Notes under the pieces: generated by a model
Databases searched by the model: none
The model's input: the letters and a program-made list of their open reading frames with translations, nothing else
Told to the model about the DNA's origin: nothing
Virus record (IMG/VR): IMGVR_UViG_3300003629_000001
DNA: 64,000 nt
DNA from: a virus
Reading direction: 5' to 3' (one strand)
Part shown: one piece after another, positions 23,158-64,000 of the stretch
How positions within the stretch are numbered: position 1 is the first letter of the stretch
Layout of the letters: every line of letters begins with the position of its first letter
Position numbers and translations under genes: made by a program

Positions 23158-23252
23158 GGTTATTCAATAGGTTCAAGTGGTCACGTCCACAACGAGAGTA
23201 ACACGCGGTTTCCGACACCACTCCCGAGGGGACGGTGGCCGCTGGACTACGC

Positions 23253-43478: not shown

Positions 43479-45518
43479 ATGAGCCAGCGTATAGAGAATC
43501 AGATACTCGCGGAGCGAGGATACGTGTGGCTCTCGAAGCAGGAGAACGAGTGGATTCCATACGTCGGGCCTGACGGTGGTGAAGGATGGCAACGTGTCGG
43601 TGACGACGAGGTGCGATACCAGCAACGACCGCCGGGAGAGACAGCCCAAGGTGTCGAAGAGAACTACTGGACTGACGATTTCGGCGCTGACGCACTTACC
43701 GAGTTCCTTTCAGAACGTCTTTCTGACGAGGATATGGGTCGTATCGGAGCGCGGGTTCAGGACGCCGCTGAAGCCATGAACTCCGATATAGACACCGAAG
43801 CAGGGTACGTATGGGGTCGTCTTCAGCACCGAGAAGAACGGTTCAATCAGCATTTGGGGGACGCGCCGGAAGGTGCGATAGTCGATTTAGTAGACAGTAT
43901 GCTTGGACGGCGAGAAGCGAAGTTCGCCCAGCGTCAGGAAATGGACGAACTCGCCATGCTGGTCGAAGATAACTCCGACATGGGAACCCGCGACAAACTG
44001 AATATCAGTGAAGCGGTGCGTGAAGTTCAGGACGATACCGACCTGACCGAAGAGGAACTTCGTCAAGACCTTTACGAAATGGTCGAAGACGCGGATATGC
44101 CAGCAGAGTACGTGCTGGATAACGCTGGCCTGAACGCGTGGAAAGACAGCAAACGGGCCGAGTGGCGAGACGAGAATCTGACTGGTGAAGACGCGATAGA
44201 AGTACCCGAAGGCCACGAAGGCGATATTACAGAGAGTGACGTTTTCGACGCGCTCAATCACACGTCGCTTTCCGGGTTCCAACTTCCGCTAAATGACCAC
44301 GACCCGATTCCCGCTGTCGCACAGGCTATGGAAGACCAGTTCGGGGACGACCCGAATAAGATGTACGACGAGATAGAAGCGTTCAACGGTGCTCTCGAAG
44401 GCATTCTCAAGCCGTTTAGTCAAACCAGTACGAACGCGCCGGAACACATGAACCCACAGAATGCCGACGAGGTGGGGAAACTGGATAAGTACACCGATAA
44501 GACCGGGCGGTCGTCTAGTTCCATGTTCGTTGCGAAAGGTGTCCCCGACGAAGACGGGAACAAGCGCGACCTGTATATCACGAACACCAACCGGAATCGG
44601 GAAGGGGCCTACGCACAAGACGACGCCGACGCCAACCGACAGATTCTCGGGTCGAACGGATTCCAAGCGGCGGGTTTTGATTCCCCTGACTCGTACCATG
44701 AACCGGGAGAGTTTTGGGCTGTCGAAGAGGCCCCCGGTGATACTGCTGACGAATTTCACGTCGAAAATGACCTTGACAATCCCGTAGAGCAATTCGCTGA
44801 ACTCGGAGCGGCGGCGGCTGTTCTCGGTGCATGGGACATTCACGAAGGGAACGTATTCATCCACGACGGCGAGTTCGTTCCAGTTGACATGGACTTGGCT
44901 GGTGCTGAACTTCACCACAGCGCCGACCACACGTTCAATCGGTATAACGCTGATTTGAATGGGTTCATGGGTCTATTTCCCCGTATGCAACGACTCTTTG
45001 ACCGCATGGACGGTGGTGATACTATCGACTTTGACGAGATAAAGCAAGCCACGAAACGTCGGGTGGCTGAAATGGGTGAGACGGGAGAGGCCAAGGAAAT
45101 CGCTGAAGCCGGAAAGAGCGACATTACACACTCAATCGGTCGGAACGTTGAAGCCAACGTTAGGGCTATTGAGAACCAGAACTACTTCGAGCGTTACCCA
45201 ACTGACGTGTTGGGAGTAAACGGATACGACGAAATGAGTGATTTCCGCGAGGGTCAGGTCGTAGAGGTGACAGAAGACGACCGAGAGCAAAGGAGTCAAG
45301 AGTTCGAGATTACCGAGACATACGACGACCACGTTGAAGTGACCGCCCTCGAAGACGGTGCGATTCTCGGTGAAGGTGAGCGGTGGAACGTTCACAACCC
45401 CGGTGAGATAACAGAAATCATCGACAGTGGGGGCGACGAAGAGGGCGACCCACCTGACCCGATTGACGCGCTCATGGACGAACTGGACGAGCGGCTGGAA
45501 GACGGTGATAGCGAATGA
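43479..45518 (+). CDS. tagged polyvalent protein 1: tag + helical region + HipA/PI3K-like kinase + SH3-like domain
   Basis: Tag at 43551; WDIHEGNVF...VPVDMD at 44835. Confidence 0.75.
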   Translation: MSQRIENQILAERGYVWLSKQENEWIPYVGPDGGEGWQRVGDDEVRYQQRPPGETAQGVEENYWTDDFGADALTEFLSERLSDEDMGRIGARVQDAAEAMNSDIDTEAGYVWGRLQHREERFNQHLGDAPEGAIVDLVDSMLGRREAKFAQRQEMDELAMLVEDNSDMGTRDKLNISEAVREVQDDTDLTEEELRQDLYEMVEDADMPAEYVLDNAGLNAWKDSKRAEWRDENLTGEDAIEVPEGHEGDITESDVFDALNHTSLSGFQLPLNDHDPIPAVAQAMEDQFGDDPNKMYDEIEAFNGALEGILKPFSQTSTNAPEHMNPQNADEVGKLDKYTDKTGRSSSSMFVAKGVPDEDGNKRDLYITNTNRNREGAYAQDDADANRQILGSNGFQAAGFDSPDSYHEPGEFWAVEEAPGDTADEFHVENDLDNPVEQFAELGAAAAVLGAWDIHEGNVFIHDGEFVPVDMDLAGAELHHSADHTFNRYNADLNGFMGLFPRMQRLFDRMDGGDTIDFDEIKQATKRRVAEMGETGEAKEIAEAGKSDITHSIGRNVEANVRAIENQNYFERYPTDVLGVNGYDEMSDFREGQVVEVTEDDREQRSQEFEITETYDDHVEVTALEDGAILGEGERWNVHNPGEITEIIDSGGDEEGDPPDPIDALMDELDERLEDGDSE

Positions 45519-48202
45519 CAGAAATTGTTCGAGTCTACGACCGTGACGGTGGCGAGTTGGAAGCAAAGGCTGACGTAGGCCCTGACGGACGCCTGATTCG
45601 GGGTGACGAAGACTTTGCTGAAATCGCTACTCGGTTCCTCGAAGAGCGGAGCGTGGACGAGATACTGACGTATCTGGACGGCCCGCATATGCTGGCTATG
45701 GCGATTGACGTGGACGGCTTAGACTACGACCCCGGCCTTCAAGAGAAAATGGAAGGTCGCCGCGCCGCAAAAGAGACACACCACGTTCCTCACAGTACCC
45801 CTATTGAGAATACCGAGAGAACTCATTGGCTCACCGAACCCCGACTCGGGAAAGTCGGTTGGTACGACAGTGATACCGGTGCGTTCCTCTACAGGGGGGC
45901 CAGCGCCCGCGTGAGTGAGTTGCTGAAGAGTGAAGGCCCCACCAGCGGACTCGAAGAGACACAAACGTCGCTGGTGGACTGTCAGGGGCCGTCCAGCAAC
46001 CTTCTCAAGCAAGACGACGGTCAGTGGATTCCGTACAAGGGGCCACAGGAAGGCGAGGGGTGGCAACAGGTCGGTTCCGGCGAGGTGCGATACCAACAAG
46101 AGCCACCCGGTGACGTAGCGGACGGACATGAGGCCGACCACTGGAAACAACGCTGGCCGGAGATTGAGGGCGCGGAGTGGAACGAAGACGTTCCACACCC
46201 GATTGACATGAAAGAGGAAGACGCTCTTCTCTTCGTCAATCGGAACGGCGAGTCGGAAGTGGGCCGTTTCGAGAGTGCGACATTCATTCGTGACGAGAGT
46301 TGGGATAGTGCGAAGACAGGCGTCACTCTCGCTGACGGTCGTCAAGTTCTGACTGACGACATAGCCGCTCATGCGGATATGACTATGGCGGTCGAACCAC
46401 CGAGTCTTCACGGTGACGAAGAGTGGGGTGACGCCCCCGGAGTCTATTCAGATTACATTCCGTGGAATCTCGTTCACTTTGTGGATTCTGACGGTGAAGA
46501 GCGAGTGGCTATGGTCGAAGGACACGCCGACGACCGGGGTGCGGTGAAGGTGCAAACCAACGAGGGATACACGGTCGTTGACCCGAGTAACATTACTCAC
46601 TACGCCGAGGTTGACCAGTTCTATAACGGCGCTTACGAAGTGCTGGATAGTCCCTTCCGTGGGATTCCAGAGATAGAAGACAACGAACAACCCCCGGACG
46701 AGAACTTTGCACAGCGTGTCGGAGTCACGGCTGACGACGTGAACGCCGCGTTCCGAATGGTTTTTGCACCCCACCTTGTGAGCGTGCTTGAAAACGAAAT
46801 CGAAGAGGGTGGGTACGACGCTGACGACCCGGACGACATAATTCAGGCTATCATCGACGTTCGTGGGTCTGAAGACGACACGACGTGGCAATCATTCAAG
46901 CGAGAACTTCGAGGGCGTTCTGTTGGAATCGGGAAGAGCCGGGCGGAACGTATTGTTAACGAAGCCTTTGCTGGCGAAACCCCCGACCCGAGTTTCGCTG
47001 TTCGTCAGGATATGGACAGGATGGACGACCCGGAAGAGTGGCTGAAACAAGCCGCCAAATTCGCTCACGAAGACGAGTTCGTGTCTATCGCTTCGTTACA
47101 GGACGCGGTGGACGAGTGGAAGGGTGACGGTGTTCCATTCAATCTCAAAGGAATCCACGACTTCGACGGTGAACCCGACGAGGTGGTAGCCCTATCAGAA
47201 ACCGGGACGAACACCGGAATCTCCGCCGGGGCCATGTTCATTGCGGACTGGCCGGACGGTAGTAGGGCGTTCGTCACTCGAATCAAGGATAAGGAAACGG
47301 GCCGACTTGTGTCTAACGACCACATGGAAACGTCCGAAGAGGCCGAACGGGCTATGACTGGCTTCGGGATTCAGAACGAACTGGCTCAAGACAACGAGTC
47401 GATTCAGGTTCCCGACCACACGTACTCAATGGACGAGTATTTCAGCGTGAAGGGCGCTCCCAACGACGCGATACTCGCTGACCAGTTCCTTGAGACGTTC
47501 CCGAGTCAGGACATGGAATTGCCGGACGGCCCGCCTGATACGGATATTGTAGAGTCGGTTGGTGCGACGGTCGAAGACGTACAACAAGCGTTCAGTGAAA
47601 CGGTATATCCGGGCTGGGAAGACCACAACGAGACGAAACAAATCTTCCACAGTGACGACAATTTGGACGAAGAGAACTCACAGGACTGGGTGGCTGTCGC
47701 CAAAATCCGTTATGATAAACCCGACCCACGAATTTGGAACGAGTTCGCCCGTGAACTCGCTGGGTCAGCCTACGAAACGCCGGTTGAACGTGAGACGTTC
47801 ATGGACATGGCGTTCGGAGCGGTCATGGCTGGCAACAAAGATATGCACTCGAATAACGTTATGGCGGATAATGAGGGAACCGTCTACCCAATCGACTTGG
47901 ACTTTGCTGGGTACGACATGACCAACAGCCGCAATTTGAGCGCCGCTATCGGGAAACTCGTCAGTACCGGTCAGGCACTCGGAATCGAACCCAGTGAAGA
48001 GTTCGAGGATAAGGGGAACCCCGACGCTTTTGACGACTCGCAACACCCATTAGCACACGAAATCCTCGCGTATATCCACGACAACGCGACCGAGGAAACT
48101 ACGGAGAAGGTTCGGAGTGGGAATCCGATGTGGCGAGACGGTGGGGCTGACAACGTTGCTCGGAACGCGGAAGCGGCAAAGAACGGAGAACTCGAACTAT
48201 GA
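45515..48202 (+). CDS. tagged polyvalent protein 2: DGP module + tags + SH3-like domains + kinase
   Basis: DGPH at 45677; tag at 46025; NKDMHSNNV...YPIDLD at 47840. Confidence 0.75.
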   Translation: MTEIVRVYDRDGGELEAKADVGPDGRLIRGDEDFAEIATRFLEERSVDEILTYLDGPHMLAMAIDVDGLDYDPGLQEKMEGRRAAKETHHVPHSTPIENTERTHWLTEPRLGKVGWYDSDTGAFLYRGASARVSELLKSEGPTSGLEETQTSLVDCQGPSSNLLKQDDGQWIPYKGPQEGEGWQQVGSGEVRYQQEPPGDVADGHEADHWKQRWPEIEGAEWNEDVPHPIDMKEEDALLFVNRNGESEVGRFESATFIRDESWDSAKTGVTLADGRQVLTDDIAAHADMTMAVEPPSLHGDEEWGDAPGVYSDYIPWNLVHFVDSDGEERVAMVEGHADDRGAVKVQTNEGYTVVDPSNITHYAEVDQFYNGAYEVLDSPFRGIPEIEDNEQPPDENFAQRVGVTADDVNAAFRMVFAPHLVSVLENEIEEGGYDADDPDDIIQAIIDVRGSEDDTTWQSFKRELRGRSVGIGKSRAERIVNEAFAGETPDPSFAVRQDMDRMDDPEEWLKQAAKFAHEDEFVSIASLQDAVDEWKGDGVPFNLKGIHDFDGEPDEVVALSETGTNTGISAGAMFIADWPDGSRAFVTRIKDKETGRLVSNDHMETSEEAERAMTGFGIQNELAQDNESIQVPDHTYSMDEYFSVKGAPNDAILADQFLETFPSQDMELPDGPPDTDIVESVGATVEDVQQAFSETVYPGWEDHNETKQIFHSDDNLDEENSQDWVAVAKIRYDKPDPRIWNEFARELAGSAYETPVERETFMDMAFGAVMAGNKDMHSNNVMADNEGTVYPIDLDFAGYDMTNSRNLSAAIGKLVSTGQALGIEPSEEFEDKGNPDAFDDSQHPLAHEILAYIHDNATEETTEKVRSGNPMWRDGGADNVARNAEAAKNGELEL

Positions 48203-50751
48203 TAGTGTTTTACCGTCTCGAAGGTCGGGACTACAACGAAATCGGGCGTGTCGAAGACGGCGAAATCGTAGACGGCGAAGAGGAACTGGCTGGTATCGTT
48301 CACCCGCCGAACCTCTCCGACGAAGACGAACTACTCGCCGCTCATGACGGCCCACATATTCTCGCCCAAATGGAAGACGAGTCGCCCGGCGAGGGTGGTA
48401 CTGACGCTAATTCTGATAGGGGTACTGAAAAGTGGGTTCCATACACCAACGGCGACGAACGTGGGTGGATTAGTGCCAGCACTGGCGAGAAGAAATTCAC
48501 CGAGGAGGCCCCCGGCCCGATAGTGAAAGGCTTCGAGGAACAGGCGGAAAACTGGACGGAAGTAAAGACGTTGAATAAGGAGTGGATTCCGTATCAGGGG
48601 CCGCACGGGGGCGAAGGGTGGCAAGAGGTGGAGACTGGTGAGGTTCGCTACGTCGAAGAGCCGCCGGGGCGAGTTGGGACAGGTGATGGCGCTCCGCCCA
48701 GTGACGGCATGACGCCTGAAGAACGGGCGTGGCTGGAAGAGCATGGCGACCCGGAAGCACTGTCGGAGTTGGAAGAAGAGGCCCCTGACGGCACGACAGA
48801 AACGAGTGAAGAGATTACGTGGGACAACGTAGCCGCCGGTGACGAAATCGCCTACTACGATGACTACGGCGAACTACAGCAGGGAGAGGTAACTGCTGTT
48901 GAACAGGACGCGTTCGGTGTGATATGGGTTCAGGACGGTCACGGCAAATCGCCAGTCGAAGAAGAGGATTTCATTGGCACGCCGGACGACAAGATTGGCG
49001 ACGGACTCGAAGCACCTGACCACGCTGGCGCTGACTGGTTCGACAATAACCTGTTCTACGGTCAGACTATCAAACTCTACAACAAAAACACCGACATGGT
49101 GGAATACGCGGACGTAGAGAGTATCTTCGTTGCGGGTGGTGAAATCAACGCTGTCGAACTTGAAGTTCAGAATCAACGTGGATTTGGCGACCTTATTACT
49201 ATCACGAACGACGACATAGACTGGCATGACCAAGACGATAACGGGAAGTACGAAATACGAGAGACGAGTCGCTGGTCGGATTTAGAAAAGGACGAGCAAA
49301 TTGACGCTGTGAGACGTTCTTACCGTGAAAATACTCGTCTTGAGACGATGGGTCGGGCTACGCGGCAAAATCTGAATGACGATATTTCTGAAGATATTAT
49401 CCCCTCGTTTAAGGACATGAACGTCGCCCGTGAGACATTCAAGTCACTCTTCAAAATCGGGAACAAGGTATCCCGAGCGAGTTGTAGCGGAACGGGGAGT
49501 GTTTCAATCAAGGTGTCAGAACGAGCGCCTATCGACACGACGAGACACGAATTTGGACACGCTATCGTCAGTTCGTTCGGATATAATTACAAGAATCGTT
49601 ACAAAAATAGCAATTTCTCTGACGAGAAGTACAGGCGGCGTCCGACGAATTTGTCTCACGAGTATCATGACCTGAAGACCCGGTACGATACCATAGCGTT
49701 CGATTTCAGCGAAGATTCAGATTTCTTTGCCCCCGAAGACTATATGCTTCAGGATACCGACAACGACGGCGAGTTTGTAGACTTTGATTTTGACGAAATA
49801 GAGGCTGGAAGGAACATATACATCGAGCCGTCCGATACCTTCATGTCGAATGAGTCATACGAAATTGAGTCAGTTGGTGAAATGGAAGACGGTAAGTTAG
49901 AAATCCACACCAGTATGGCTCAAGACGCCTATGTTGATAGAGAGGGGACTGTCTATCAGTACGATTCGTTCGGTGGTGGATGGGAAGAGGTTGGGGAAGC
50001 AACCGCATTCACTCAAGAGAAACTACCGCACGGATTCGACGCGTGGAAAGACGCTGTAGAGGAAGAGGTTCACGGAGAAACCGATTTGGAACAGAGGGAG
50101 TACGAGAATACCGAGGGTATGTCGCCCAAAGACGTGTTCGAGTCGGTTGATAAGGGCGACGTAGTTCGGTTCCAGCACGAAGACAAGACGATTCACCTTA
50201 TTGCTCAAGAGAAAGAAAACCTCTCTCAAGAAGACCGGCGTGATTATGAGTTCGTTCACCCCGGCGACGGTTCACAGTGGAATTTCACCGTACAGAGTGA
50301 CAACGGTGAACTTCAGTTCTCTGACCACATTGTTACTGGGTACGACGATACATACGGCGAAGAAGACGGGGACAGCCCGAACGTGGATAATCCTCTTGAG
50401 AACTGGGAAGGGTTTGAGCCAAACCCTGAAACCACTGAACAGAGAATAGATAATTTAGTGTCAGCCGTGAACCGTGCGTGGTACAAGCAAGCCAAAATGT
50501 TCGAGAACGACCCTGCTGATTTCGGTAACAGCGCTTACAGTATTGGGTCGGGATACTCGGCCACAAATGCTCAAGAGACAATGGCGAAAACTCATGAGGT
50601 TTTACAGAACGGCGACCAGTTGGCAACCTCGCATTTGATTGAAGAACATCCGTATCTGGTTGCGGCTTATGTAGAACTGTTTGAGCCGCACTTGTACGCT
50701 AAAAAGGCGATTCATCGTCATGGCGGGGAAGAGTACGGGATAAAAGTATGA
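48199..50751 (+). CDS. tagged polyvalent protein 3: DGP module + 2 tags + zincin metallopeptidase
   Basis: Tags at 48433 and 48583; HEFGH at 49546; YSATNAQETMA at 50554. Confidence 0.7.
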   Translation: MIVFYRLEGRDYNEIGRVEDGEIVDGEEELAGIVHPPNLSDEDELLAAHDGPHILAQMEDESPGEGGTDANSDRGTEKWVPYTNGDERGWISASTGEKKFTEEAPGPIVKGFEEQAENWTEVKTLNKEWIPYQGPHGGEGWQEVETGEVRYVEEPPGRVGTGDGAPPSDGMTPEERAWLEEHGDPEALSELEEEAPDGTTETSEEITWDNVAAGDEIAYYDDYGELQQGEVTAVEQDAFGVIWVQDGHGKSPVEEEDFIGTPDDKIGDGLEAPDHAGADWFDNNLFYGQTIKLYNKNTDMVEYADVESIFVAGGEINAVELEVQNQRGFGDLITITNDDIDWHDQDDNGKYEIRETSRWSDLEKDEQIDAVRRSYRENTRLETMGRATRQNLNDDISEDIIPSFKDMNVARETFKSLFKIGNKVSRASCSGTGSVSIKVSERAPIDTTRHEFGHAIVSSFGYNYKNRYKNSNFSDEKYRRRPTNLSHEYHDLKTRYDTIAFDFSEDSDFFAPEDYMLQDTDNDGEFVDFDFDEIEAGRNIYIEPSDTFMSNESYEIESVGEMEDGKLEIHTSMAQDAYVDREGTVYQYDSFGGGWEEVGEATAFTQEKLPHGFDAWKDAVEEEVHGETDLEQREYENTEGMSPKDVFESVDKGDVVRFQHEDKTIHLIAQEKENLSQEDRRDYEFVHPGDGSQWNFTVQSDNGELQFSDHIVTGYDDTYGEEDGDSPNVDNPLENWEGFEPNPETTEQRIDNLVSAVNRAWYKQAKMFENDPADFGNSAYSIGSGYSATNAQETMAKTHEVLQNGDQLATSHLIEEHPYLVAAYVELFEPHLYAKKAIHRHGGEEYGIKV

Positions 50752-51734
50752 GACTCATAATCACCAACAACAACGACGAGGAACTGGGCGAGATACGGTC
50801 GAATTTCGAGTTCGAGGCTGATATTCCGTTCGAGGATAAGGAACGGATTCGAGCGCTCATGCGTTCAGCGAAGAAATTCGCTATGGACGTAGGGCCAGTT
50901 GAACGCTCCGGGGGCGCGGATGAACGCGAACTAATTACCCCCGGCGAAGAGGTCGTGGAGTTCGAGACGGACGAAGCACTTCCACGCGTCAAGGTCGCTA
51001 TTGACCGAATGACTCGGTATCATGCTGTCCTCGAAGAGACGGAAGAGCGTGAAGCAATCAAGGCTGTTGACGCTCCGTTCAACGCCCCGGATGGAAAGGA
51101 AGTACACGAAGGGCCGCCCGGATTCTTCTACTACAACGTCAGTAAGGATACTGAAGAATCAGGGGATGGTGAGGTGTTGGAAGTTCGGGATTACTACCGA
51201 GTGTGGGTCAACGACCAAGATAGCGTTCCTGACGACAGCATGGCGCTCTACGACGAAGAGGGCGACCCGGCTGGAAATCACTGGTACTACGAAGTACCGT
51301 TCGAGACGAAGACGCGAATCAATCTTTCCGAGCATGAAGTTGACCCGTCGAATGTGATAGAAAAGGACGCTGACGTTGAACTCTCACCTGACGAACTGAA
51401 CGAGTACGGTATTTGTAAGTCGGATAACGAACGGATACAGGAAGCCAGTGAAGCCGTTGAAAAAGGTGAGCCGGTGTGGGGCGATACTCATTCGGTGAGT
51501 GGGGCTGTTCTCAAGTCAGTAGAGTGTCCGTCGGTGTTGCTCTGTCTCTATAAGTTGTTTCACAATGCTGGCGACGAGTACACCCAATATCTCCCACCGA
51601 TTCAAACTGAACTCAATCACCGTGGCGTCAAGGCGATAGATAAAATTACACGGAAGAAGCGAGATTTCGGTCAAGCGACCGACGACGTGACGCTCGAAAA
51701 GAGCGGCGATTGGCTTGAGTTCGAGCGAGAGTAG
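50748..51734 (+). CDS. modular hypothetical protein of the array
   Basis: ATGA-coupled to the peptidase gene; contains APDGKEVHEGPPGFFYY. Confidence 0.6.
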   Translation: MRLIITNNNDEELGEIRSNFEFEADIPFEDKERIRALMRSAKKFAMDVGPVERSGGADERELITPGEEVVEFETDEALPRVKVAIDRMTRYHAVLEETEEREAIKAVDAPFNAPDGKEVHEGPPGFFYYNVSKDTEESGDGEVLEVRDYYRVWVNDQDSVPDDSMALYDEEGDPAGNHWYYEVPFETKTRINLSEHEVDPSNVIEKDADVELSPDELNEYGICKSDNERIQEASEAVEKGEPVWGDTHSVSGAVLKSVECPSVLLCLYKLFHNAGDEYTQYLPPIQTELNHRGVKAIDKITRKKRDFGQATDDVTLEKSGDWLEFERE

Positions 51735-51804
51735 TTTAACCGGTTCTTCCCGAAAGGTCTTACAGTAGGGGTATCAACAGTATTAACAAGAGGCCACTAT
51801 CCCC

Positions 51805-52602: not shown

Positions 52603-52607
52603 CTGTA

Positions 52608-55600: not shown

Positions 55601-56741
55601 GGGAGCGTGTAAAACACGAATCGTGGAAGGGCCGGACGGAGGTGAGTATATCGCTAAAGAGGGTATCGAAGGCGACGACTTGAGAAGCCGCCAGTGGTCG
55701 ATAGACGAAAACGACGACGCTGAACTTATGGACTCCCTCGCTCGCACTTCGGCGGCGGCGTTCTTTGTTGGCAATCAAGACCTTCACTCTCACAATATCC
55801 GGGTCAACTTCGATACACAGGAAGCGACTGTAATCGACCACGACGCCGCTGGTGGGAGTCATTTTGGTAGTTTCATGGACGTTAACAGAGTTGTCAACGA
55901 CCCGCTTAGTACCTCTCAAGTCGAAAACGAGATATACGATATTGCGCGGGATTATATGAGAGGCGACCTTGACGTTCCCGAGGAACTGAAAGGAACGAAC
56001 CACGAATCCTACTTCAAGGACGCCATAGACAAACTGGCGAACGACGAAAGCCATTCAGACCTATTTGAACCGTGGGGCGGCGACCCGCACAGTCTTCCGC
56101 GTCATGCGGATAGCATGGACGACTTTCAGGAAGGGCAAGAAGTGACAGTTCTGACGAGTGACGGACACGTTCGCACAGGAGAACTCACCCAGTTCTATCA
56201 AGGGACTTGGTATGGTGAGACGGACGACAACTACGAAATTTCGTTCGATATGCCGCACCACGTTCTCTCGTCCGAAGAGCCAAAAATTCCGATTGAACCG
56301 ACCGAAGAATCGGCGGCGCTCATGGACGCACTGGCTGACCGAGAGGATTCATACGACTCCTTAACCGACCTTGAACCCGGTATGGGTATCACGATTAATC
56401 AGGGGTTTAGCGACGAAGAGGTGCTGGTTGAAGAGGTGAAAACGGACGGCCCGGTGACTCAAGTAGAAGTTCGTCCGACTGACGGTGGCGACCCATTCCA
56501 CGTCAATCAGTGGGACGACGTAGTTCAGGTTGGACGGGAACGGAACTGGAATGGTGAGTTGGACGACCTAAACACTGGTGAAGAGATTCGGGTCGAAGAC
56601 GAAGACGGTGAAGAGATTAGCGGGACGTTCATGGGCTACGACGCTGACAGCGGAGAGGTAGAAATCCAAGACGCACCGGGACGGATTGTCACGGTGGACG
56701 CGCCACGTAACGTCCAGCGGTTGACGGGTGATTCAGAATGA
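52608..56741 (+). CDS. tagged polyvalent protein 4: tag + ART + tag + SH3-like domains + kinase + SH3-like domains
   Basis: Tags at 52689 and 54366; LFRG...NYSAD...ESE; NQDLHSHNI...VIDHD at 55779. Confidence 0.75.
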   Translation: MSLTKDLADALAGTVAKQHPAFRSSTNWLPYRGPRGGEGYINTYTGDVVYGSDRPGGGWDSDGEIEVDESFRAAPDGYEWERPPMNYDVKDEIDEANPDNVDGFLEAKFSGDQVIYEDGQGEEAPHSWGRVTGARVDTYTNLGGHEVTGVVLELESGDDVPLNRVLKHVNTSQDPKYEAWQLADDNPHEDDLEDVSEKVYHSFSHDEFEWKEYADWRNDAKTLPVLSEHGADDLWKAMSAYFDRESMNDLRADLASWKSDSDRGTGRYSDIAKEVFEIDAVSRDNRYGEEWDTSNEEDFKRAVEILSDASRRFYEDQYESDDLFRGISRHGFRSLVKGWLENPGADEFEVEHRALANYSADHRVARDWAGNTVVIQPDIDPEDIVLAIDGLNFSGVHNTESEVHMRGDRITLKPDDVKLKTRRDTQGRTSWPERKAGLSEPAENWSANDAENFSRAISLIYDDETPDEETALRFLRIAKAHEDHIEDKLNSDRFNFERDRFFTTGTAGPGEAHGEVIEWENEYLDLLGRIEAEHGLNLSSVEKAENPPGSPDETPVVDLTEDWFLSPEHRDDPERAEKQVQNVMGEWVPYQGPRGGEGWQRISDQEVVYQDDPPGDVVEGVEENFWERYGEGDESQDTSGYYDADEWDDAFEGMNIAAPSDVPEGAEIYYISSVGNHHEGRVVGYEYGENIEGADPTPAYLKVVGDDGYEASVTADQIQEITDMPHEAEVPEFEWDTDIPPINELQEGADVLYEGENGIRRVGEYERPTFVQTEEGTFGGVVLEDGTEIRLQDMVAVDEGPVPLEPREDPFEFESVVNEGDFRGFRAPDETWDNLLEFTPFDGLGEVPLGATVEFDTPKLNGTIEGEVTGYIDYDASIGETNSLRVQTEDDYVGETTVGPSNFVRFIGPEGDQDLSLEEYLSNPFAHAHKVEGSREAGITGGNTTGEKMKIATMPDDSLIFATPVEAYNHITTGVVDSAAEARENNLNSPIMIDHLGGGACKTRIVEGPDGGEYIAKEGIEGDDLRSRQWSIDENDDAELMDSLARTSAAAFFVGNQDLHSHNIRVNFDTQEATVIDHDAAGGSHFGSFMDVNRVVNDPLSTSQVENEIYDIARDYMRGDLDVPEELKGTNHESYFKDAIDKLANDESHSDLFEPWGGDPHSLPRHADSMDDFQEGQEVTVLTSDGHVRTGELTQFYQGTWYGETDDNYEISFDMPHHVLSSEEPKIPIEPTEESAALMDALADREDSYDSLTDLEPGMGITINQGFSDEEVLVEEVKTDGPVTQVEVRPTDGGDPFHVNQWDDVVQVGRERNWNGELDDLNTGEEIRVEDEDGEEISGTFMGYDADSGEVEIQDAPGRIVTVDAPRNVQRLTGDSE

Positions 56742-59700
56742 CAGTAGTTGTATATGAACTGAACGACGACGCGGAGTACGAGGAACTGGGTAGCCATACC
56801 GACCAAGAGGCCGTGGAGAACGACGACCTACTGGATATTTTTCCTGAACAGGTGTGGCAAGACCACTCCGACGAATGGCTCTCCGAGCGGATTGACGGCC
56901 CTTACGTCATGGCCGCAATTCAGGACGAAGACTCCGAGACGACAGAGAAAATCAGTATGTGGACACCCTACGTCGGCCCGAACGGTGGCGAGGGCTACCA
57001 ACATATGCTGACTGACGAAGTTCGTTACGTGGACGAGGAACCCACTGACGACGAAGCACCCGGCAATGACGTTGACGTAGACGAACCCGAGAGCGGTGAA
57101 CTGAACGAAATGACCGGGATTTCGGACGCGTCGTATATTGAAGACAATCTTCCGGTCACGGCGACGTGGGAGAATGACGACGGTGAATCATTCGTTGGTC
57201 AAATCGAAGAGGTGGATTACGGCGGCTTTGACGAGAAGTTTGTAATTGCCGCTACCAACGGACGGCGCTACGAGGTGAATGGTGACGATTTGACCGGGTA
57301 TATCGAACCCACGCCGGAATACAACCCGGAAAGTGACGAGGAAGACGGACGGATTCGGGACGGATTCGAGCGGATAAAGGAAAAACTTGGCGAGGGTGTG
57401 ATTCCACCGCGTCCAACTCCCAATATGGGTAATGGTGGCTCTCGTCCCGAACAGAGCGATTTCCGACAAATCGCGTCGGAAGACGACGCCGAGAAACTAC
57501 AGCAGATTATCGACACTGGCGACACTGGGAATATTCAGGTCGGAATCGAAGCCGTCGGTGACGGAGTAGACTACGGCCCGTGGGACGCTGATACGGATAA
57601 TCTCAATTACTTCGACGGCGGTCAGTTCACGAACATCGACGTGGAAATGCCGGTCGAAGATTTCCTTGCCACACAAACGGATATGTTGTCGTCTGACCGG
57701 AACCATCCACAAGAAGCCTACGAGTCGTTCCACCGAGTTCGGACTGACGACGTAGAAGAGTACGCCGAGGTGTTACAGAACGAACCGGGTGAAATGCCCA
57801 TGCCGTACATTGAGTTCGGTCGCAACGGCAATATGCGGAACTCACAGGAAGGCCGACACCGCGCTCTCGCGGCGCGTATGGCTGGGTTAGATACCATGCC
57901 GGTTCGGTTCGTTCTAAACCCCGACCGCGACGGAAAAGGCGCTGAAGACCGTGTTGACTGGGGTCAGGATTTGAGTAAGCCGGTGGAGAAACGCACAAAG
58001 TGGCGTCCATATCTCGGCCCGCGTGGTGGTGAAGGCTGGATTAAGCCGTTCAGTTTCACCGACGACAAAATTGTCTACGACGAAGAACCACCGGGTGAAG
58101 TATCGCCGGAGTACAGCGAGGATTACTGGCACGACCGCCCGTCTCCGGTCAACGAAGATATTGTTAATTTGGTGGATTCGCACCTCGAAGGCGTTCGAGC
58201 GCGTCCGTACAAGTTGGACGAACCGACAGCGGATTTCTTCGAGGAAGGACTGGAAGCCGGGTATCACCCGAACGCCGTTTCCGAAGCCGCTGAATGGAAA
58301 CTGAAAAGCATGGAAAAGGAGATTGGGGACGGTGGGCGACTCGAAGAGAACGACGTTCAGAAGGTACTCCGAGACGCCGCTACCCAGTTCCTTGACCGCC
58401 AAACCGAGCAAGAGATAGAGATAGAAGGTGGCAAACGAGGTGGTGGGGTTATCTCTCTCGGTGAAATTGACAACAACTTCAAACGAGACTGGTGGGATAA
58501 CTTCGAGTCTGAAATAGGCTACACCGACGACCAAATGACGAACGAGAAGCCTGCTTACAGTGCTATTCGCAACTGGTCTATCACCAGTAGTATGTTCAGT
58601 CAGTCTACAGCGCCACTAATCAAAGCGGCCATGCGAGAGAGCGACAACGATTTCATTCCGGTCAACGGCGAAGAGGTGCGTGAGACAGACGTAACCGACC
58701 GAGAAATCGAACACGTTCTCGAATACAAAGAGGCCATGACTGAACTGTACCGGAGCGTCTACGGTGACACGGTTCCGTGTTTCCGTGGCATTGACGGTCA
58801 GAGTAGTCAAATCGACGGAATGCGCGAAGATATACAGGAAGGCAAGGGTATCGAACTTCCTGAAGCCACCCTCTCTTCGTGGGCGACGGAACCCGGAACC
58901 GCCATGCGATTCGCCGGGAGCATCCACACTGACGGCTACAGCGAAGGTGGTGTCGTGATTCGTCAAGAGGTTCCGGTTGAACAACTATTCGTGACTGGCG
59001 ACACTCACCCCGGCCTTCTTAATAACGAGAACGAACTTGTTGTTAACGCGCCGGAACCCGAGACGCGCTACGAACCCGACAACCTGATTCTCCCGAGTGA
59101 GACGACAGCACTCGAACAGGCGGTGTGGGCGGCGGAACGTGCTAATAGGGATACTGACGTGAGCGAGGAAGCCGCGAAGGCTGTCCAGCGAGCGCTCCTT
59201 TCCAAACAGGAAATGAACCAGTACGCTTCAATCGCAATCGAAAACTACGATTGGTTCCGTCAGACTGTCGGTGAGCAAACCCAACCCGACATTAAGTCGA
59301 AAGAGTGGATTCCGTATGAAGGGCCACGGGGCGGTGAAGGGTGGCAAAATACGGAAGACCGAGACGATATTCGATATGGGCTGGAAGACCCGCCCGGTGA
59401 AGTGGCCGAGGGGTACGAAGACATGGCCGAAGACTGGGGGGCGGGAGAAGACGCTGTAGAAATCCCCGAGAAGTTCGAGGGAGAGTACGCCCCGGAAGAC
59501 ATTACGCCGATTCCCGGCGACCCTGCTGAATGGGGTGACGAGTTCCCAATTAGTGAAGGACAGACACTACTCGGTCAAAATTGGGAATGGGATATAGAAA
59601 ATCTCTGGTTCCAAGGTAGCGATACACACGTTCCTGAACCTCGAATGGAATTAGCAATTCCGACTGGTGTTAGTCACAAATTTGGTTACGTATCCGATTC

Positions 59701-62700
59701 CGTGAAGTTACAGGGTATGGAACCCGGTTGGTTCAAGAATCCGGCTATCCCCAGCAAGCAAAACAAGCAAGAGTTCGTCGGAGTCGTCGGAGAACCTGAA
59801 CCACGAGATATGAGTTTCAACCCGACTGGTGAAGCGGCGAATGCTTCGTTTGATTTAGACGAAGCGGCTGAAAGAATGAGTCAGGAGATTCGTGACCGCA
59901 ATTCGTGGGAAAACAAAAAGGCTGGAATTTACGCGGCTGAACTAATAGAAGAGCATGACCCGAGTTACGAAACGCTACTCGCTATCACTCGTTACGGGCT
60001 GGAATCAAATGGTCAGAGTATAAACGAAGACCGCGATATAGACGACGCTCAAGAAATTGTCTTGGACGGTATCGACCAACACCTTGACAATGAAGCACCT
60101 GACCACCCCACGCTCAAGGGCAAACTGTCGTTAAGTCACGCTGACCCCGAATTGACCGAAGATTTCATGAGTCGTATGACACCCGATACCCGAGAGACTG
60201 TCAATACGGCTATGGGTGAATGGATTCGTGGTCAGGGGAGTATGGTGGACGAGTACACACTTCCAATTTACCGACTGGCCGCTCACACCTACGAGAACGA
60301 TTTCTACCCGACGCGTGGTGACGTAGGGAAACTCATTGCGGAAGCCGACGACGTGGAAGCCGCTGACAGTCTCGAAGTTCGTCAAGAGAGGCTGGAACGC
60401 TATCGTCAAAAGACCGTAGAGACGTTCCGTGAAGTGTTCGGTGATACCGTTCCGGTGTTTCGTGGCTACGACCCCGGTGAACAATCCAAAGGTAAAGAAG
60501 CACGGGAAGCGCTACAGGCTGAAGACGCCCCGTCAGAGATAGAGATTCGTAATGGTGTGGCGAACTCATGGTCTACAAACCCGACCGTCGCATTTCAGTT
60601 TTCGACGTGGAATACCGAAGATTACCCCGGTATTGTTGTCCGCCAAGAACTCCCCGTTGAACAAATATTCGGGTCGTCTGATACCACTACCAGTGGTCGG
60701 TCTGACGAAGCGGAAATCGTTGCTGGCAATCCTGAAGAGTACACTAACCACAGCCGCGACGACGTATTCCTTCCCGAAGAGTTCGACCCGATTGAGCAAA
60801 TGCGGTGGGCGCTTTCGGGTATCGAAAATGACGCCAGTGAAGAGGAAGAGAAGGCTGACGGGGAAACGCTATCACTTGACTGGGAACTCGAATCGGTTGA
60901 CTGGCTACGTCGTTACCGGAAGATGGAAGACGCACTCACGAAAGAAAACTGGACTCCTATAGACGTAGGCGACCAGAGAGGCTACCAGCACGTCGTCAGC
61001 GGAGAGACGATAGTATCCAAGGCTGGTATCCCGTTCAGCAACACGGCGCGTCAGGCGGGCCACACGCCGCTGTCAGCGGTGGTTATGGACTCCGACGCAC
61101 TGGGGAAAGAGTGGGTTCCATATCACGGCCCACGGGGCGGTGAAGGGTGGCGGAATACAACGACCGAGAATATCCGCTACGGACTGGACGAAGCACCGCG
61201 CCCAGCCGAGAACGACCCCGACGAACTCACCGAAGAGAACATCGAAGAGGCTGATATTCAACAGTCGTTCGGCCTCATGCAAACTACAGCCAACGACTTG
61301 GTAGAAGGTGAGAAACTACACTTCGAGGTTCAAGGCCACCCCTACGAAACCCGCGTTCAGGAAGTGACCGACGACGCGATTCACGCGATAGACACCGAGA
61401 CGCACCGCGAGTTCGAGATTCCGACCGACGAGCGAGGAATGGCCGAAAGCGGGCTAACACTGGCTTCGCCACAAGCGGTATTCTTCGGCCACGGTATCGC
61501 TGGGTCGGAGTCGTCGTGGCTACCCGAGGAAGACGAACCGAGTCAGATAGAACTCGAAGCCGAAGCGCTTCGTTCCGCCGCGTCCACCGACGGATTCGGT
61601 GATACCAGTTACATTGAAGGCTTCGCCGCACGGGCGAGTGAACTCGGTGCTGGACGTGACGAGATTACCAACGCGATTCACGGCGCTCTCGAAGAACACC
61701 CCGCACTGAACACGGATTTGGCCGACGAGATTTACGAGAACGGTCAGCGGCTATTGGAAATCGAAGAGTCGCTGACGGACAAGTCACTCGCTCGCTCCTA
61801 TCCCATTACCCCTATCAGGACTATGCGGAAGGAGTGGATTCCGTACCGTGGCCCACAGGACGGAGAGGGCTGGCAAAACGTCAACAATCCCGACGACATT
61901 CGATACGGACTCGAAGACCCGCCCGGTGAAGTGGCTGAAGGCTACGAAGAACAGGCGGAAGACTGGGGGCCGAGTAGCGACGAGGAACCCGACCGAGTTC
62001 AGGGCGCGACCCTCGTAGACTACAACATTCCGGGGAGCGACAAGGACATTCAAGTCCCGAAAAACTTCACGGCTGACGACTTGAAGAACACCATTCGGCG
62101 GTTCCGAGACGACAACGAAGGCGACCTACTCACGGAACTGGCGAACGTCGTTCAAATGCAAAACGACGGCAACCTAAACGACAAGATGGACGTGCTTCAT
62201 GGCACGGCTGAAGTGCTGGGGAACCACCCGGAGATTATCGACCAGTACAACGACCTGCTACACGAAGAGATAGCCGATACTCCAAACGCCAACTTCGACG
62301 TACCATTCGGCTTCGACGGTGTGGACGTTCACAATATGCTGGAAGACACCTTTGGCCCCCACAGTGAGATTGTGGGTGAACTCGAAGATATGGTTCTGTT
62401 CGGGGACGTGGACGAAGAAAAAGCCGACAACTGGATTACCGCCGCCGAAGGCTGGATTCGTAACTACGGCGACCGGAAAATGGCGGACAAGTTCAAGGAT
62501 ACCATAGCCGACGCGGAGTTGGCGAATCCGTTCTCAAACACCGACGAGTACGCCGCACAGGAAGAGATTAGCGACGACCTAAACCCAGCAAAAGCGTCCC
62601 GAGTTGTGCCTATTTCGGATACTGAAGCGTCTACGGGTATCAGCGCTGACAGTATGTTCATAGCCGAGTACGACGACGGACACCGAGCATTCGTCACCAA

Positions 62701-63319
62701 CACCAGTCACCACCGCTCGGAGCGGATTGACGAGGTACGGAATCAAGGCGAGGAAGACGCCGAGCGGGCTATGGCTGGCTACGAAGCCTTCAAGGCCGCT
62801 GGTATGGACGTTCCTCGCCACGAACGGCTCAAGACGGAATACTGGACAGTTGAAGAGGCTGACGGTCAACCAGCGAGGGAGTGGGGCGGTGAACCGGACG
62901 AAGCCATGCGTGACCAGTTCGCTAAACTCGGCGCTGTCGCCATGCTCTCGGGGAACTGGGATATGCACGGTGGGAACGTCTTCGTGACCGAGAACGGTGG
63001 TCTGATTCCAGTTGACCTTGACTTGTCGGGTCACGATATGCAATCCCGCGACTGGAAGCACACGTCGTGGGGGCGACTCAAGAGTTTGGGTCGAACGCTG
63101 AATATGTACGAGGTGAGAGGTGACGATAACGAAGTTCTCGAACTCAAGCGAGACGTGGCCCGTGCGACACAGGAACTAATCGAAGACGGAACAGCCGACG
63201 ATATAAAGAGTATGGCGTCCAACGTGGATAATAAGGATATTCAAATGGCTATCGAAGAGAACGTCTTCGCCGCCAAAGGTGGGCGGCTCTACGACGACAG
63301 AGTGCGGGGTGACGAATGA
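56738..63319 (+). CDS. tagged polyvalent protein 5 (2193 aa): DGP module, 6 tags, ParB-like domain, 2 ARTs, kinase
   Basis: Tags at 56960, 58001, 59306, 60950, 61112, 61835; EGRHR at 57848; FRG/SSW/ENE and FRG/SWS/EAE; NWDMHGGNV...PVDLD at 62960. Confidence 0.8.
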   Translation: MTVVVYELNDDAEYEELGSHTDQEAVENDDLLDIFPEQVWQDHSDEWLSERIDGPYVMAAIQDEDSETTEKISMWTPYVGPNGGEGYQHMLTDEVRYVDEEPTDDEAPGNDVDVDEPESGELNEMTGISDASYIEDNLPVTATWENDDGESFVGQIEEVDYGGFDEKFVIAATNGRRYEVNGDDLTGYIEPTPEYNPESDEEDGRIRDGFERIKEKLGEGVIPPRPTPNMGNGGSRPEQSDFRQIASEDDAEKLQQIIDTGDTGNIQVGIEAVGDGVDYGPWDADTDNLNYFDGGQFTNIDVEMPVEDFLATQTDMLSSDRNHPQEAYESFHRVRTDDVEEYAEVLQNEPGEMPMPYIEFGRNGNMRNSQEGRHRALAARMAGLDTMPVRFVLNPDRDGKGAEDRVDWGQDLSKPVEKRTKWRPYLGPRGGEGWIKPFSFTDDKIVYDEEPPGEVSPEYSEDYWHDRPSPVNEDIVNLVDSHLEGVRARPYKLDEPTADFFEEGLEAGYHPNAVSEAAEWKLKSMEKEIGDGGRLEENDVQKVLRDAATQFLDRQTEQEIEIEGGKRGGGVISLGEIDNNFKRDWWDNFESEIGYTDDQMTNEKPAYSAIRNWSITSSMFSQSTAPLIKAAMRESDNDFIPVNGEEVRETDVTDREIEHVLEYKEAMTELYRSVYGDTVPCFRGIDGQSSQIDGMREDIQEGKGIELPEATLSSWATEPGTAMRFAGSIHTDGYSEGGVVIRQEVPVEQLFVTGDTHPGLLNNENELVVNAPEPETRYEPDNLILPSETTALEQAVWAAERANRDTDVSEEAAKAVQRALLSKQEMNQYASIAIENYDWFRQTVGEQTQPDIKSKEWIPYEGPRGGEGWQNTEDRDDIRYGLEDPPGEVAEGYEDMAEDWGAGEDAVEIPEKFEGEYAPEDITPIPGDPAEWGDEFPISEGQTLLGQNWEWDIENLWFQGSDTHVPEPRMELAIPTGVSHKFGYVSDSVKLQGMEPGWFKNPAIPSKQNKQEFVGVVGEPEPRDMSFNPTGEAANASFDLDEAAERMSQEIRDRNSWENKKAGIYAAELIEEHDPSYETLLAITRYGLESNGQSINEDRDIDDAQEIVLDGIDQHLDNEAPDHPTLKGKLSLSHADPELTEDFMSRMTPDTRETVNTAMGEWIRGQGSMVDEYTLPIYRLAAHTYENDFYPTRGDVGKLIAEADDVEAADSLEVRQERLERYRQKTVETFREVFGDTVPVFRGYDPGEQSKGKEAREALQAEDAPSEIEIRNGVANSWSTNPTVAFQFSTWNTEDYPGIVVRQELPVEQIFGSSDTTTSGRSDEAEIVAGNPEEYTNHSRDDVFLPEEFDPIEQMRWALSGIENDASEEEEKADGETLSLDWELESVDWLRRYRKMEDALTKENWTPIDVGDQRGYQHVVSGETIVSKAGIPFSNTARQAGHTPLSAVVMDSDALGKEWVPYHGPRGGEGWRNTTTENIRYGLDEAPRPAENDPDELTEENIEEADIQQSFGLMQTTANDLVEGEKLHFEVQGHPYETRVQEVTDDAIHAIDTETHREFEIPTDERGMAESGLTLASPQAVFFGHGIAGSESSWLPEEDEPSQIELEAEALRSAASTDGFGDTSYIEGFAARASELGAGRDEITNAIHGALEEHPALNTDLADEIYENGQRLLEIEESLTDKSLARSYPITPIRTMRKEWIPYRGPQDGEGWQNVNNPDDIRYGLEDPPGEVAEGYEEQAEDWGPSSDEEPDRVQGATLVDYNIPGSDKDIQVPKNFTADDLKNTIRRFRDDNEGDLLTELANVVQMQNDGNLNDKMDVLHGTAEVLGNHPEIIDQYNDLLHEEIADTPNANFDVPFGFDGVDVHNMLEDTFGPHSEIVGELEDMVLFGDVDEEKADNWITAAEGWIRNYGDRKMADKFKDTIADAELANPFSNTDEYAAQEEISDDLNPAKASRVVPISDTEASTGISADSMFIAEYDDGHRAFVTNTSHHRSERIDEVRNQGEEDAERAMAGYEAFKAAGMDVPRHERLKTEYWTVEEADGQPAREWGGEPDEAMRDQFAKLGAVAMLSGNWDMHGGNVFVTENGGLIPVDLDLSGHDMQSRDWKHTSWGRLKSLGRTLNMYEVRGDDNEVLELKRDVARATQELIEDGTADDIKSMASNVDNKDIQMAIEENVFAAKGGRLYDDRVRGDE

Positions 63320-64000
63320 CCGTCACCTTCTACGAACTCGGTGAAAACGACTACACCGAAATTGGTCGTATCCACGACGGAGAAATCGTAGACGGCGAAG
63401 ACCAACTGGTCGCAATCGGCGCTGACCAGTTCGCGGACAACGAAAAGAAACTACTGAACGTCTACGATGGGCCGTACATCGTTGCTGGAATTGGGACGCC
63501 TAATACCCTTACTCAAAAGTCGGACAAGGCACTTCGGAAGAGCGTCGAAACAGTCTTCAAAGACTGGATTCCCTACGAGGGGCCACAGGGCGGGGAAGGC
63601 TGGCAAAACACCCTGACAGGCGAAATCCGCTATCAGGAAGGGAAGCCGAGTGGCGCGGGAAGTGACGCCGACGTTACTGTCCCCGGCAACTCTACGATAC
63701 AGACTGTCTCGGCGGCTATCACGTCAGTCCTCGGCGCGACAGTCATGCAATCGCTCAAGCAACAGGCGACCGGTGGCGGTGGGTCATTCAACCCACAGAC
63801 GTTCGTGACCGCCGCCGCCATGTATATCGCACAGACTGGTAAGGGGTCGCTCGGAGAACTACAGGAAGCGTTGGATACCGAAGCCGAGAGCGAACCCGAA
63901 GACGCTCAAGACGTGACGATTCAGACCGAGAGTGGCGAAATCGAATCTACGACTCAAACGGGTGTCACCGACGTAACGAGCGCGATTACACAAGTCTCGT
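63316..64000 (+). CDS. tagged polyvalent protein 6 (runs off the window; absent from the ORF track)
   Basis: ATGA overlap; manual translation MTVTFYELGENDYTEIGRIHDGEIVDGEDQL...YDGPYIVAG...VFKDWIPYEGPQGGEGWQNTLTGEIRY. Confidence 0.8.
   Translation, partial: MTVTFYELGENDYTEIGRIHDGEIVDGEDQLVAIGADQFADNEKKLLNVYDGPYIVAGIGTPNTLTQKSDKALRKSVETVFKDWIPYEGPQGGEGWQNTLTGEIRYQEGKPSGAGSDADVTVPGNSTIQTVSAAITSVLGATVMQSLKQQATGGGGSFNPQTFVTAAAMYIAQTGKGSLGELQEALDTEAESEPEDAQDVTIQTESGEIESTTQTGVTDVTSAITQVS

Follow-up and report, generated by a model that had tools for sequence, protein, structure and literature searches.

The effector array and its tag

This analysis concerns a block of genes at the 3′ end of a 64,000-nucleotide stretch of viral DNA, IMG/VR record IMGVR_UViG_3300003629_000001, which is referred to throughout as the window. 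The gene order is large terminase, HNH endonuclease, portal, second HNH endonuclease and DUF192 protein, followed by genes A–H, which lie on the + strand and continue to the window end. A previous reading of the sequence alone (the sequence-only reading) had described more than 20 kb of mostly overlap-coupled genes after the portal, six of them built from a recurring unit in which a peptide tag precedes variable cargo. Both descriptions hold. The array begins 1.3 kb 3′ of the portal, extends from position 43479 to the window end (>20 kb) and consists of genes that mostly overlap by 4 bases; tags are present in genes A, B, C, F, G and H. Database proteins and loci are cited below by P and L numbers, and lengths are in amino acids (aa).

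43479..45518, + strand: gene A (679 aa); tag, helical region, kinase-like domain, small beta barrel
45515..48202, + strand: gene B (895 aa); DGP N-terminal module, tag, barrels, kinase-like domain
48199..50751, + strand: gene C (850 aa); DGP module, degenerate tag and tag, barrels, HExxH zincin-like module, conserved C-terminal domain
50748..51734, + strand: gene D (328 aa); without the WIPY tag, with a second junction motif (hYh..P..AP.G...G...YY)
51805..52602, + strand: gene E (265 aa); untagged acidic protein, kept in relatives L004 and L005 (8.6e-67)
52608..56741, + strand: gene F (1377 aa); tag, ADP-ribosyltransferase (ART), tag, barrels, kinase-like domain, barrels
56738..63319, + strand: gene G (2193 aa); DGP module, tag, barrels, ParB/sulfiredoxin (Srx), tag, helical region, ART, tag, ART, degenerate tag and tag, barrel, tag, helical region, kinase-like domain
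63316..64000, + strand: gene H, cut by the window end; DGP module, tag

The small beta barrels were seen in structure models. The full product of gene H is P0102 (778 aa), whose N-terminal 228 residues are identical to the truncated protein and which carries an ART at residues 604–762. DNA past the window end gave no exact match in IMG/VR, and a metagenome scan for it returned only two short relatives (93–97%); what is said below of the contig beyond the window draws on protein records.

The tag was delimited in two ways. The strict pattern W.PY.GP..G.G[WY] gave 11 in-frame matches, all on the + strand and all within 43.5–63.6 kb, compared with none in 100 shuffles. A six-frame profile search of the whole window gave 13 significant copies (31–74 bits), all of them in frame, and nothing else above 4 bits.

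43542..43688, + strand: tag 1 (A), 73.8 bits
46016..46162, + strand: tag 2 (B), 71.5 bits
48424..48564, + strand: tag 3 (C, degenerate), 50.4 bits
48574..48747, + strand: tag 4 (C), 65.5 bits
52680..52826, + strand: tag 5 (F), 55.1 bits
54357..54500, + strand: tag 6 (F), 68.4 bits
56951..57091, + strand: tag 7 (G), 60.6 bits
57989..58147, + strand: tag 8 (G), 61.2 bits
59294..59443, + strand: tag 9 (G), 67.7 bits
60941..61096, + strand: tag 10 (G, degenerate), 30.9 bits
61106..61255, + strand: tag 11 (G), 59.1 bits
61823..61972, + strand: tag 12 (G), 67.8 bits
63556..63678, + strand: tag 13 (H), 66.7 bits

When 355 copies from 175 proteins were pooled, the core of the tag was found to span 29 residues, W-[VI]-P-Y-x-G-P-[RQ]-G-G-x-G-W-x-N-x-x-T-G-E-V-R-Y-Q-[DE]-[ED]-x-P-G, and to be followed by a low-complexity linker. 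Conserved residues of the 11 strict copies are encoded by the same codon in a fraction of 0.405 of cases, against 0.37 expected from codon usage. Selection therefore acts on the tag peptide and not on a DNA recombination site. The tag as a DNA-level recombination junction was also considered and ruled out, the synonymous sites being random. Neither the tag nor the array proteins matched any Pfam or NCBIfam model, and in PHROGs only the gene H protein found a weak match, to the unannotated phrog_24083 (4.6e-5), over a region that includes the tag. A literature search on the core motif ('GPRGG' together with 'phage') returned nothing relevant. The 29-residue peptide is, on these searches, previously undescribed.

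Placement of the tags and grammar of the units

The tags are leaders and not tails. Of the 175 proteins, 128 have their first tag no more than 130 residues from the N-terminus and 18 no more than 15 residues from it, some at residue 2; only three have fewer than 130 residues after the last tag. The median spacing from tag to tag is 371 residues, and within the window a tag is found upstream of every enzyme domain. A single polypeptide can carry two or more unrelated enzymes, as in F (ART and kinase) and G (ParB, two ARTs and kinase). Whole units of tag and cargo recur in differing combinations between viruses; P0012, for example, joins the ParB-tag-ART part of G to the barrel-kinase unit of F, the recombination having occurred at tags.

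Three further conserved elements accompany the tags. The DGP module (~60 residues, hhhYxL..xxY.EIG...DGEIVDGE...L...DGP[HY]I) stands at the start of genes B, C, G and H (45515–45720, 48199–48380, 56738–56940 and 63316–63500), each of which follows a gene containing a kinase module, and is also N-terminal in 15–25 database relatives and in P0152. Three roles are conceivable for it: the true signal for loading, a coupling element, or a partner or immunity module acting on the kinase encoded before it. The second junction motif, [VI][YW][VI]..P..AP.G..V...GP.GG.YY, is present in gene D (51201–51290), at the N-termini of gp113, gp115 and gp116 of the haloarchaeal virus HVTV-1 (L001), and between portal and PI3K-like kinase in the fusion proteins P0206 and P0207 (residues ~640–680). 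To judge from the shared elements 'GP.GG + aromatic' and 'PPGE / APEG', it may be a permuted relative of the WIPY tag. Finally, a short conserved peptide (IDLTD.AS..W / DWE..S..WL[HR]R) stands after each ART module, about 30–60 residues before the next tag (window 59150–59260 and 60820–60900; P0152 residues 722–733 and 1318–1329).

The enzyme cargo

The cargo following the tags includes four kinds of enzyme module.

44436..45158, + strand: kinase-like module of A (PI3K/PI4K/HipA/Rio-like fold); AlphaFold2 predicted local distance difference test (pLDDT) 80–90; Foldseek E ~1e-5, prob 1.0
47132..48199, + strand: kinase-like module of B; BLAST to G residues 1889–2170, motif visible
55395..56057, + strand: kinase-like module of F; kinase alignment
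62585..63316, + strand: kinase-like module of G; kinase alignment
53475..53897, + strand: ART module of F (DRAT-like subtype); ART alignment; HVTV-1 gp115 homologue, 1.7e-10
58655..59107, + strand: ART module 1 of G; AlphaFold2 pLDDT 85–96; VIA Z 6–6.8
60305..60787, + strand: ART module 2 of G; ART alignment; R / S-W-S / E-x-E kept
57605..57937, + strand: ParB/sulfiredoxin-like module of G; QEGRHRA invariant
49246..49758, + strand: HExxH zincin-like module of C

The kinase modules share G-x-D-x-H-x-x-N and D-x-D, which are invariant in 12 segments from the window and its relatives, and gene A is 28% identical to the last unit of G over 563 aa. With the scores listed above, Foldseek matched the model of gene A to Vps34, PI3K, Rio2, HipA, actin-fragmin kinase and PI4K. 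The kinase profile gave a weak match to the PI3K catalytic loop (E 0.036), and the window modules match no Pfam model, PF00454 included. Modelled fold and catalytic loop together place the modules of A, B, F and G among the PI3K/HipA-like atypical kinases.

In the ART modules, R-G, [ST]-[WY]-[ST] and E-x-E are invariant (10 sequences). The model of G residues 290–860 (pLDDT 75.5) contains an ART part that VIA aligned with C2-I, VIP2, iota, Vis, C3 and ExoS (Z 6–6.8, root-mean-square deviation (rmsd) ~4.5 Å, ~165 residues); by Foldseek alone the model was matched weakly (E 0.012), and a search of the ART profile against Protein Data Bank (PDB) sequences gave only chance matches to HisF. Modules of P0152 homologous to the ART of F match Pfam DRAT at 3e-5. 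The motif set and the model indicate that the window ARTs are ADP-ribosyltransferases of the R-S-E clade (C2-I / VIP2 / C3 / DRAT type). Their membership of ART-PolyVal (PF18760) was ruled out, as this family has an H-Y-type motif set and the window copies are R-S-E.

The ParB/Srx module of G aligned with sulfiredoxin at Z 8.6 (rmsd 3.7 Å, 89 residues) and with ParB N-terminal domains at Z ~7, which points to a ParB/sulfiredoxin fold with a G-x-x-R (GRHR) nucleotide-binding motif. The gene C module is probably a zincin metallopeptidase, as judged from its HExxH, which is invariant in four homologues including HVTV-1 gp113. The only match of its profile among PDB sequences was FtsH, weakly (E 0.5), and only zincin families are among its Atlas feature neighbours, at 0.84, a value below the trust level that makes them a lead only.

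The sequence-only reading had counted four kinase-like, three ART-like, one ParB-like and one zincin domain. The first three counts are confirmed, with one ART in F and two in G, and the kinase, ART and ParB segments do model as the folds proposed (AlphaFold2 with Foldseek or VIA), from two structure-prediction alignments that were shallow (11 and 17 rows). As for the zincin, the invariant motif stands and the support stays at the level of that motif.

Distribution of the tag and its link to head proteins

A search with the tag profile through 1.84 billion representative proteins (E ≤ 0.001) matched 503 protein clusters, many of them giants with 3–6 copies, from halophilic and non-halophilic viruses. 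Contrary to the restriction to archaeal viruses implied by the sequence-only reading, about one third of the retrieved tags belong to non-halophilic, non-acidic proteins with bacterial-phage domains. Among 28 such proteins, nine contain ART-PolyVal and four Portal_Mu; TopoIB, sigma-70, SAM lyase, zeta toxin, SNF2, GNAT, PI3_PI4_kinase and MuF domains occur as well. In cellular genomes the tag is almost absent: in one genome from each of 185,579 prokaryotic species, a degenerate DNA pattern of the strict tag occurred three times, each time as a true tag (Haloarcula salina, an Acetobacteraceae metagenome-assembled genome (MAG) and a Gemmataceae MAG). The Haloarcula salina occurrence (L014, scaffold2 of 655 kb, minus strand near 3770–3808) is a 158-aa open reading frame (ORF) that ends with a canonical tag (49 bits) and is perhaps what remains of a provirus, or a fragment that was captured.

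The connection of the tag with head proteins was expected by the sequence-only reading and is seen directly in single polypeptides where cargo is joined to Portal_Mu or to MuF. P0062 runs from Portal_Mu (49–364) through a tag (488), ART-PolyVal (676–809), a tag (823), sigma-70 (888–1049) and a tag (1069) to RelA/SpoT (1560–1666). In L011 the tag lies inside a portal-InPase fusion, and the gene that follows encodes six tags together with four ART-PolyVal domains. Six halophile proteins (P0152, P0020, P0154, P0165, P0091 and P0120) combine tags, ARTs and a C-terminal MuF; P0152, which lies beyond the window and has the same contig statistics as the window proteins, is ordered DGP module, tag, ART, tag, ART, MuF. 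In addition, 113 homologues of the window portal were found, and five are fused C-terminally to PF00454 PI3_PI4_kinase. These kinase-fused portals of haloarchaeal viruses (P0206, P0207, P0213, P0216 and P0217) are ~1,140–1,165 aa long.

No window protein matched MuF (PF04233), in agreement with the sequence-only reading, which had gone on to propose that the tag is used in place of MuF. This second proposal is contradicted by the six proteins with both elements and by the context loci, which were few and chosen by availability: in all five with enough downstream DNA, a MuF domain ends the array. In L004 and L005 the array is located between TerL-portal and MuF, in L007 tags are followed by MuF, and in L009 the order is tags, MuF and then the capsid gene.

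The virus and the neighbourhood of the array

The genes that lie upstream of the array provide the context for these comparisons.

38000..39457, + strand: TerL (large terminase); Pfam Terminase_6N 4e-12
40025..42184, + strand: portal; Pfam Phage_portal 3e-5; tblastn 7e-164; 53% identity to the portals of the Haloarcula viruses HCTV-5, HVTV-1 and HCTV-1
42720..43475, + strand: DUF192 protein with a C-terminal CWxGY...VPNCVP motif; Pfam DUF192 4e-26

The window proteins are strongly acidic (pI ~4.1–4.2 for those tabulated). From this acidity, and from the 53% identity of the portal to those of Haloarcula siphoviruses, we read the window as part of an uncultured tailed virus of haloarchaea (salt lake), a distant relative of the Druskaviridae. 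Protein records place the window proteins on three contigs, the longest of 145,854 bp. Elsewhere in the window (13938–14984, 17703–19718 and 23235–25889) an AAA_5 ATPase and a VWA protein, which resemble the CobS/CobT pair, and a class II-type ribonucleotide reductase are encoded, all typical of large haloviruses. The portal is bracketed by two HNH endonuclease genes (39460–40023 and 42181–42765), as it is in HVTV-1 (gp109 and gp111).

The DUF192 protein probably belongs to the cargo block as a member without a tag; a DUF192 domain is also found inside the tagged polyproteins P0175 and P0068. Its C-terminus (window 43320–43410) reads DPCWEGYEM.GTK..DG..VPNCVP and matches five unannotated PHROG families. 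The same motif also finds a match in L009, near the N-terminal end of a 569-aa ORF that lies immediately 5′ of the capsid gene.

Comparison with known systems

The closest description of such arrays is that of the polyvalent proteins of phages, giant chains of several effectors that are encoded beside portal-terminase genes, in some cases as fusions with portal or MuF, and for which packaging and injection have been predicted; their repertoire includes ART, kinase, metallopeptidase, DdrB-like ParB, zeta toxin and InPase (Iyer, Burroughs, Anand, de Souza, & Aravind, 2017, PMC5512222). The array shares their position next to portal and terminase, it strings together ART, kinase, ParB-type and probably metallopeptidase enzymes, its relatives are fused to portal or MuF, and the tagged proteins of non-halophiles carry the defining PF18760 ART-PolyVal. 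It differs in several respects. The word 'linker' is absent from that paper, archaea are barely mentioned in it (three occurrences) and no Pfam model covers the tag. The window ARTs are of the R-S-E (DRAT / VIP2-like) type instead of ART-PolyVal. The window kinases are PI3K/HipA-like; the paper describes a truncated Ser/Thr/Tyr-kinase clade. The content is, moreover, distributed over ~10 coupled genes (20 kb in the window) and not concentrated in one protein.

In the MuF polymorphic toxins of temperate phages, a toxin is linked to the head protein MuF within the DNA-packaging module and co-delivery with the DNA has been proposed (Jamet et al., 2017, PMC5576092). The link of toxin-type enzymes to MuF in a packaging module is common to both systems. 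In the system described here, however, MuF is found at the C-terminus of P0152, the protein that ends the array, most cargo proteins are without it, the hosts are archaeal, and a separate leader is repeated before every cargo.

In phage P1, the anti-defence enzymes of the Dar system (DarB, DdrB, DarA, Hdf) are carried in the head and injected, and a ParB-like protein is processed before packaging (PMC12810830, PMC5512222). Large anti-defence-type enzymes, a ParB-like protein among them, are found in the array as well, where carriage in the head is a prediction. In contrast, cargo loading in P1 depends on dedicated helper proteins, and P1 has no repeated leader; no DarA or Hdf homologue was seen in the window.

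The nearest cultured relatives are HVTV-1 (gp113 and gp115) and HCTV-1 (gp106–gp109), members of the Druskaviridae with a 'zeta toxin domain protein'. In these viruses the slot contains portal, large proteins, MuF, 'zeta toxin', protease and major capsid protein (MCP), and the window array occupies the same slot, between portal and protease/MCP. HVTV-1 gp113 has the HExxH module and gp115 an ART of the F type. However, both viruses contain only diverged half-tags (W..T.TGEHRYQETKPG, 9–14 bits) together with the second junction motif, here VYV.SP.EAPEG..V..GP.GG.YY, and their slot measures ~9 kb, compared with >20 kb here. Searched against 50,697 phage records by megablast and tblastn, the array gave no match. 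A 36-residue non-halophile tag gave only matches at E ~5 in these records, to the 'zeta toxin' genes of HCTV-1 and HCTV-16.

The Alt protein and the internal proteins IPI–III of T4 have a short N-terminal capsid-targeting peptide that directs cargo, including an ART, into the prohead core and is removed by the prohead protease. This peptide is of ~10 residues, specific to its lineage and present once per protein. The tag resembles it as a short peptide N-terminal of unrelated cargo that includes an ART. It is different in having a core of 29 residues, in occurring up to six times per protein and in being found in viruses of two domains of life; there is no sequence similarity between the two, and loading or cutting would be attributed to the tag by analogy.

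What the array and its tag may do

Position, fusions and cargo repertoire bear out the proposal that these are tag-and-cargo polyproteins of the polyvalent or MuF-linked kind within the head-morphogenesis block, and the array belongs to the portal-/MuF-associated polyvalent effector class of phages. Because of the same position, portal/MuF fusions and repertoire, the array proteins are likely to be packaged in the virus head, and they are probably delivered to the host with the DNA. Each protein is a chain of units, each composed of the 29-residue leader, a flexible acidic linker, accessory barrels or helices and one enzyme. In the mechanism that we infer, the leader would act like the T4 capsid-targeting sequence, docking every unit, while the procapsid assembles, to a conserved component in its interior, and would also mark the boundary where the polyprotein is cut into single enzymes, which would then be ejected with the DNA. 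That the tag is such a T4-like address and cut mark on head-packaged effector units has, in our estimate, an even chance of being correct.

Several observations weigh against it. Cargo fused directly to the portal makes a docking signal seem needless, and G has six tags although one docking signal per protein would suffice. The flanks of the tag show no strongly conserved cut-site residue, the best being Lys at −2 in 52% of halophile tags and Met at −3 or Ser at −2 in 20–28% of the others. The tag is modelled by AlphaFold2 as a short beta-hairpin with modest confidence (pLDDT 58–70), and no canonical tag was found in the cultured viruses of the phage collection. A complex prediction with the tag and portal residues 40–530, taken as a monomer, scored 0.00; controls were not run, and the result speaks neither for nor against binding.

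Head packaging would also be compatible with a tag that serves as a processing or hinge element only, cut by the head-maturation protease or by the zincin of the array, while loading is the task of MuF, of portal fusion or of the ~60-residue module that opens B, C, G and H and could be the real address. The tag precedes every cargo domain, including those in portal-tag-cargo chains where release needs a cut, and such fusions fit a processing element at least as well as a loading signal. Each tag is also followed by a low-complexity linker, a zincin-like module is encoded in the array and in its relatives (HVTV-1 gp113 among them), and metallopeptidase domains are predicted to autoprocess polyvalent proteins (Iyer et al., PMC5512222). 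However, where a stand-alone protein has its tag at residue 2, the cargo is free without any cut, an invariant 29-residue core of aromatic, Gly and Pro residues in archaeal and bacterial viruses exceeds the known requirements of head-protease sites, and the want of a conserved scissile residue tells against a purely processing role too. A tag without any part in loading is a serious candidate that we nevertheless consider unlikely.

Alternatively, the tag might act after assembly, by binding the packaged DNA or the portal/tail channel so that effectors leave with the genome, or by docking them on a common host hub. Arg/Lys and aromatic residues abound in non-halophile tags, each unit has its own copy, as if every released enzyme needed one, and conservation in viruses of bacteria and archaea suggests a universal partner such as DNA or HK97-type head parts. 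Yet at position +10 halophile tags have Glu where non-halophile tags have Lys/Arg, which indicates adaptation of a surface instead of a fixed contact with nucleic acid; no known DNA-binding family matched the tag, and a host protein target shared across two domains of life is unlikely. A post-assembly function is improbable on this evidence. Least probable of all is that the array encodes late cytoplasmic enzymes for host takeover or anti-defence that merely lie among head genes, the tag being a folding or solubility spacer or a shuffling junction: modules are indeed swapped at tags between viruses, but the tags are not conserved as DNA, as recombination sequences would be, portal/MuF fusions of tag-cargo chains place homologous modules inside heads, and all loci whose flanks are long enough have the array between portal and MuF.

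The address-and-cut-mark reading can be taken one step further. The tag might be a portable cargo address, read by a conserved part of HK97-type heads in bacterial and archaeal viruses alike and sufficient to load any protein that follows it into the capsid and, once cut, to release it for delivery with the DNA, with kinases and ARTs acting first in infection. It would then amount to a counterpart of the T4 capsid-targeting sequence that works across both domains. This extension is tentative, and we would sooner expect it to fail than to hold.

Implications

How tailed viruses choose the proteins carried in their heads has, to our knowledge, been worked out in only a handful of model phages (T4, P1, P22 and SPP1). 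The tag, as a conserved and easily recognised sequence before the cargo enzymes of at least 503 protein clusters, is a concrete candidate for a general loading or processing signal, and it offers a simple handle for finding virion-delivered effectors in metagenomes. Should the tag prove to be enough for encapsidation, it would provide a means of filling capsids with proteins of choice. The fusion of PI3_PI4_kinase to the portals of haloarchaeal viruses was not found described in the literature consulted on polyvalent/MuF effectors and haloviruses. For archaeal virology, the array points to a large unexplored entry arsenal of PI3K-like kinases, ADP-ribosyltransferases, ParB/Srx proteins and a probable protease. 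If the tag is indeed a portable address, phosphorylation of proteins or lipids by PI3K-like kinases together with ADP-ribosylation would be the first acts of infection by these archaeal viruses.

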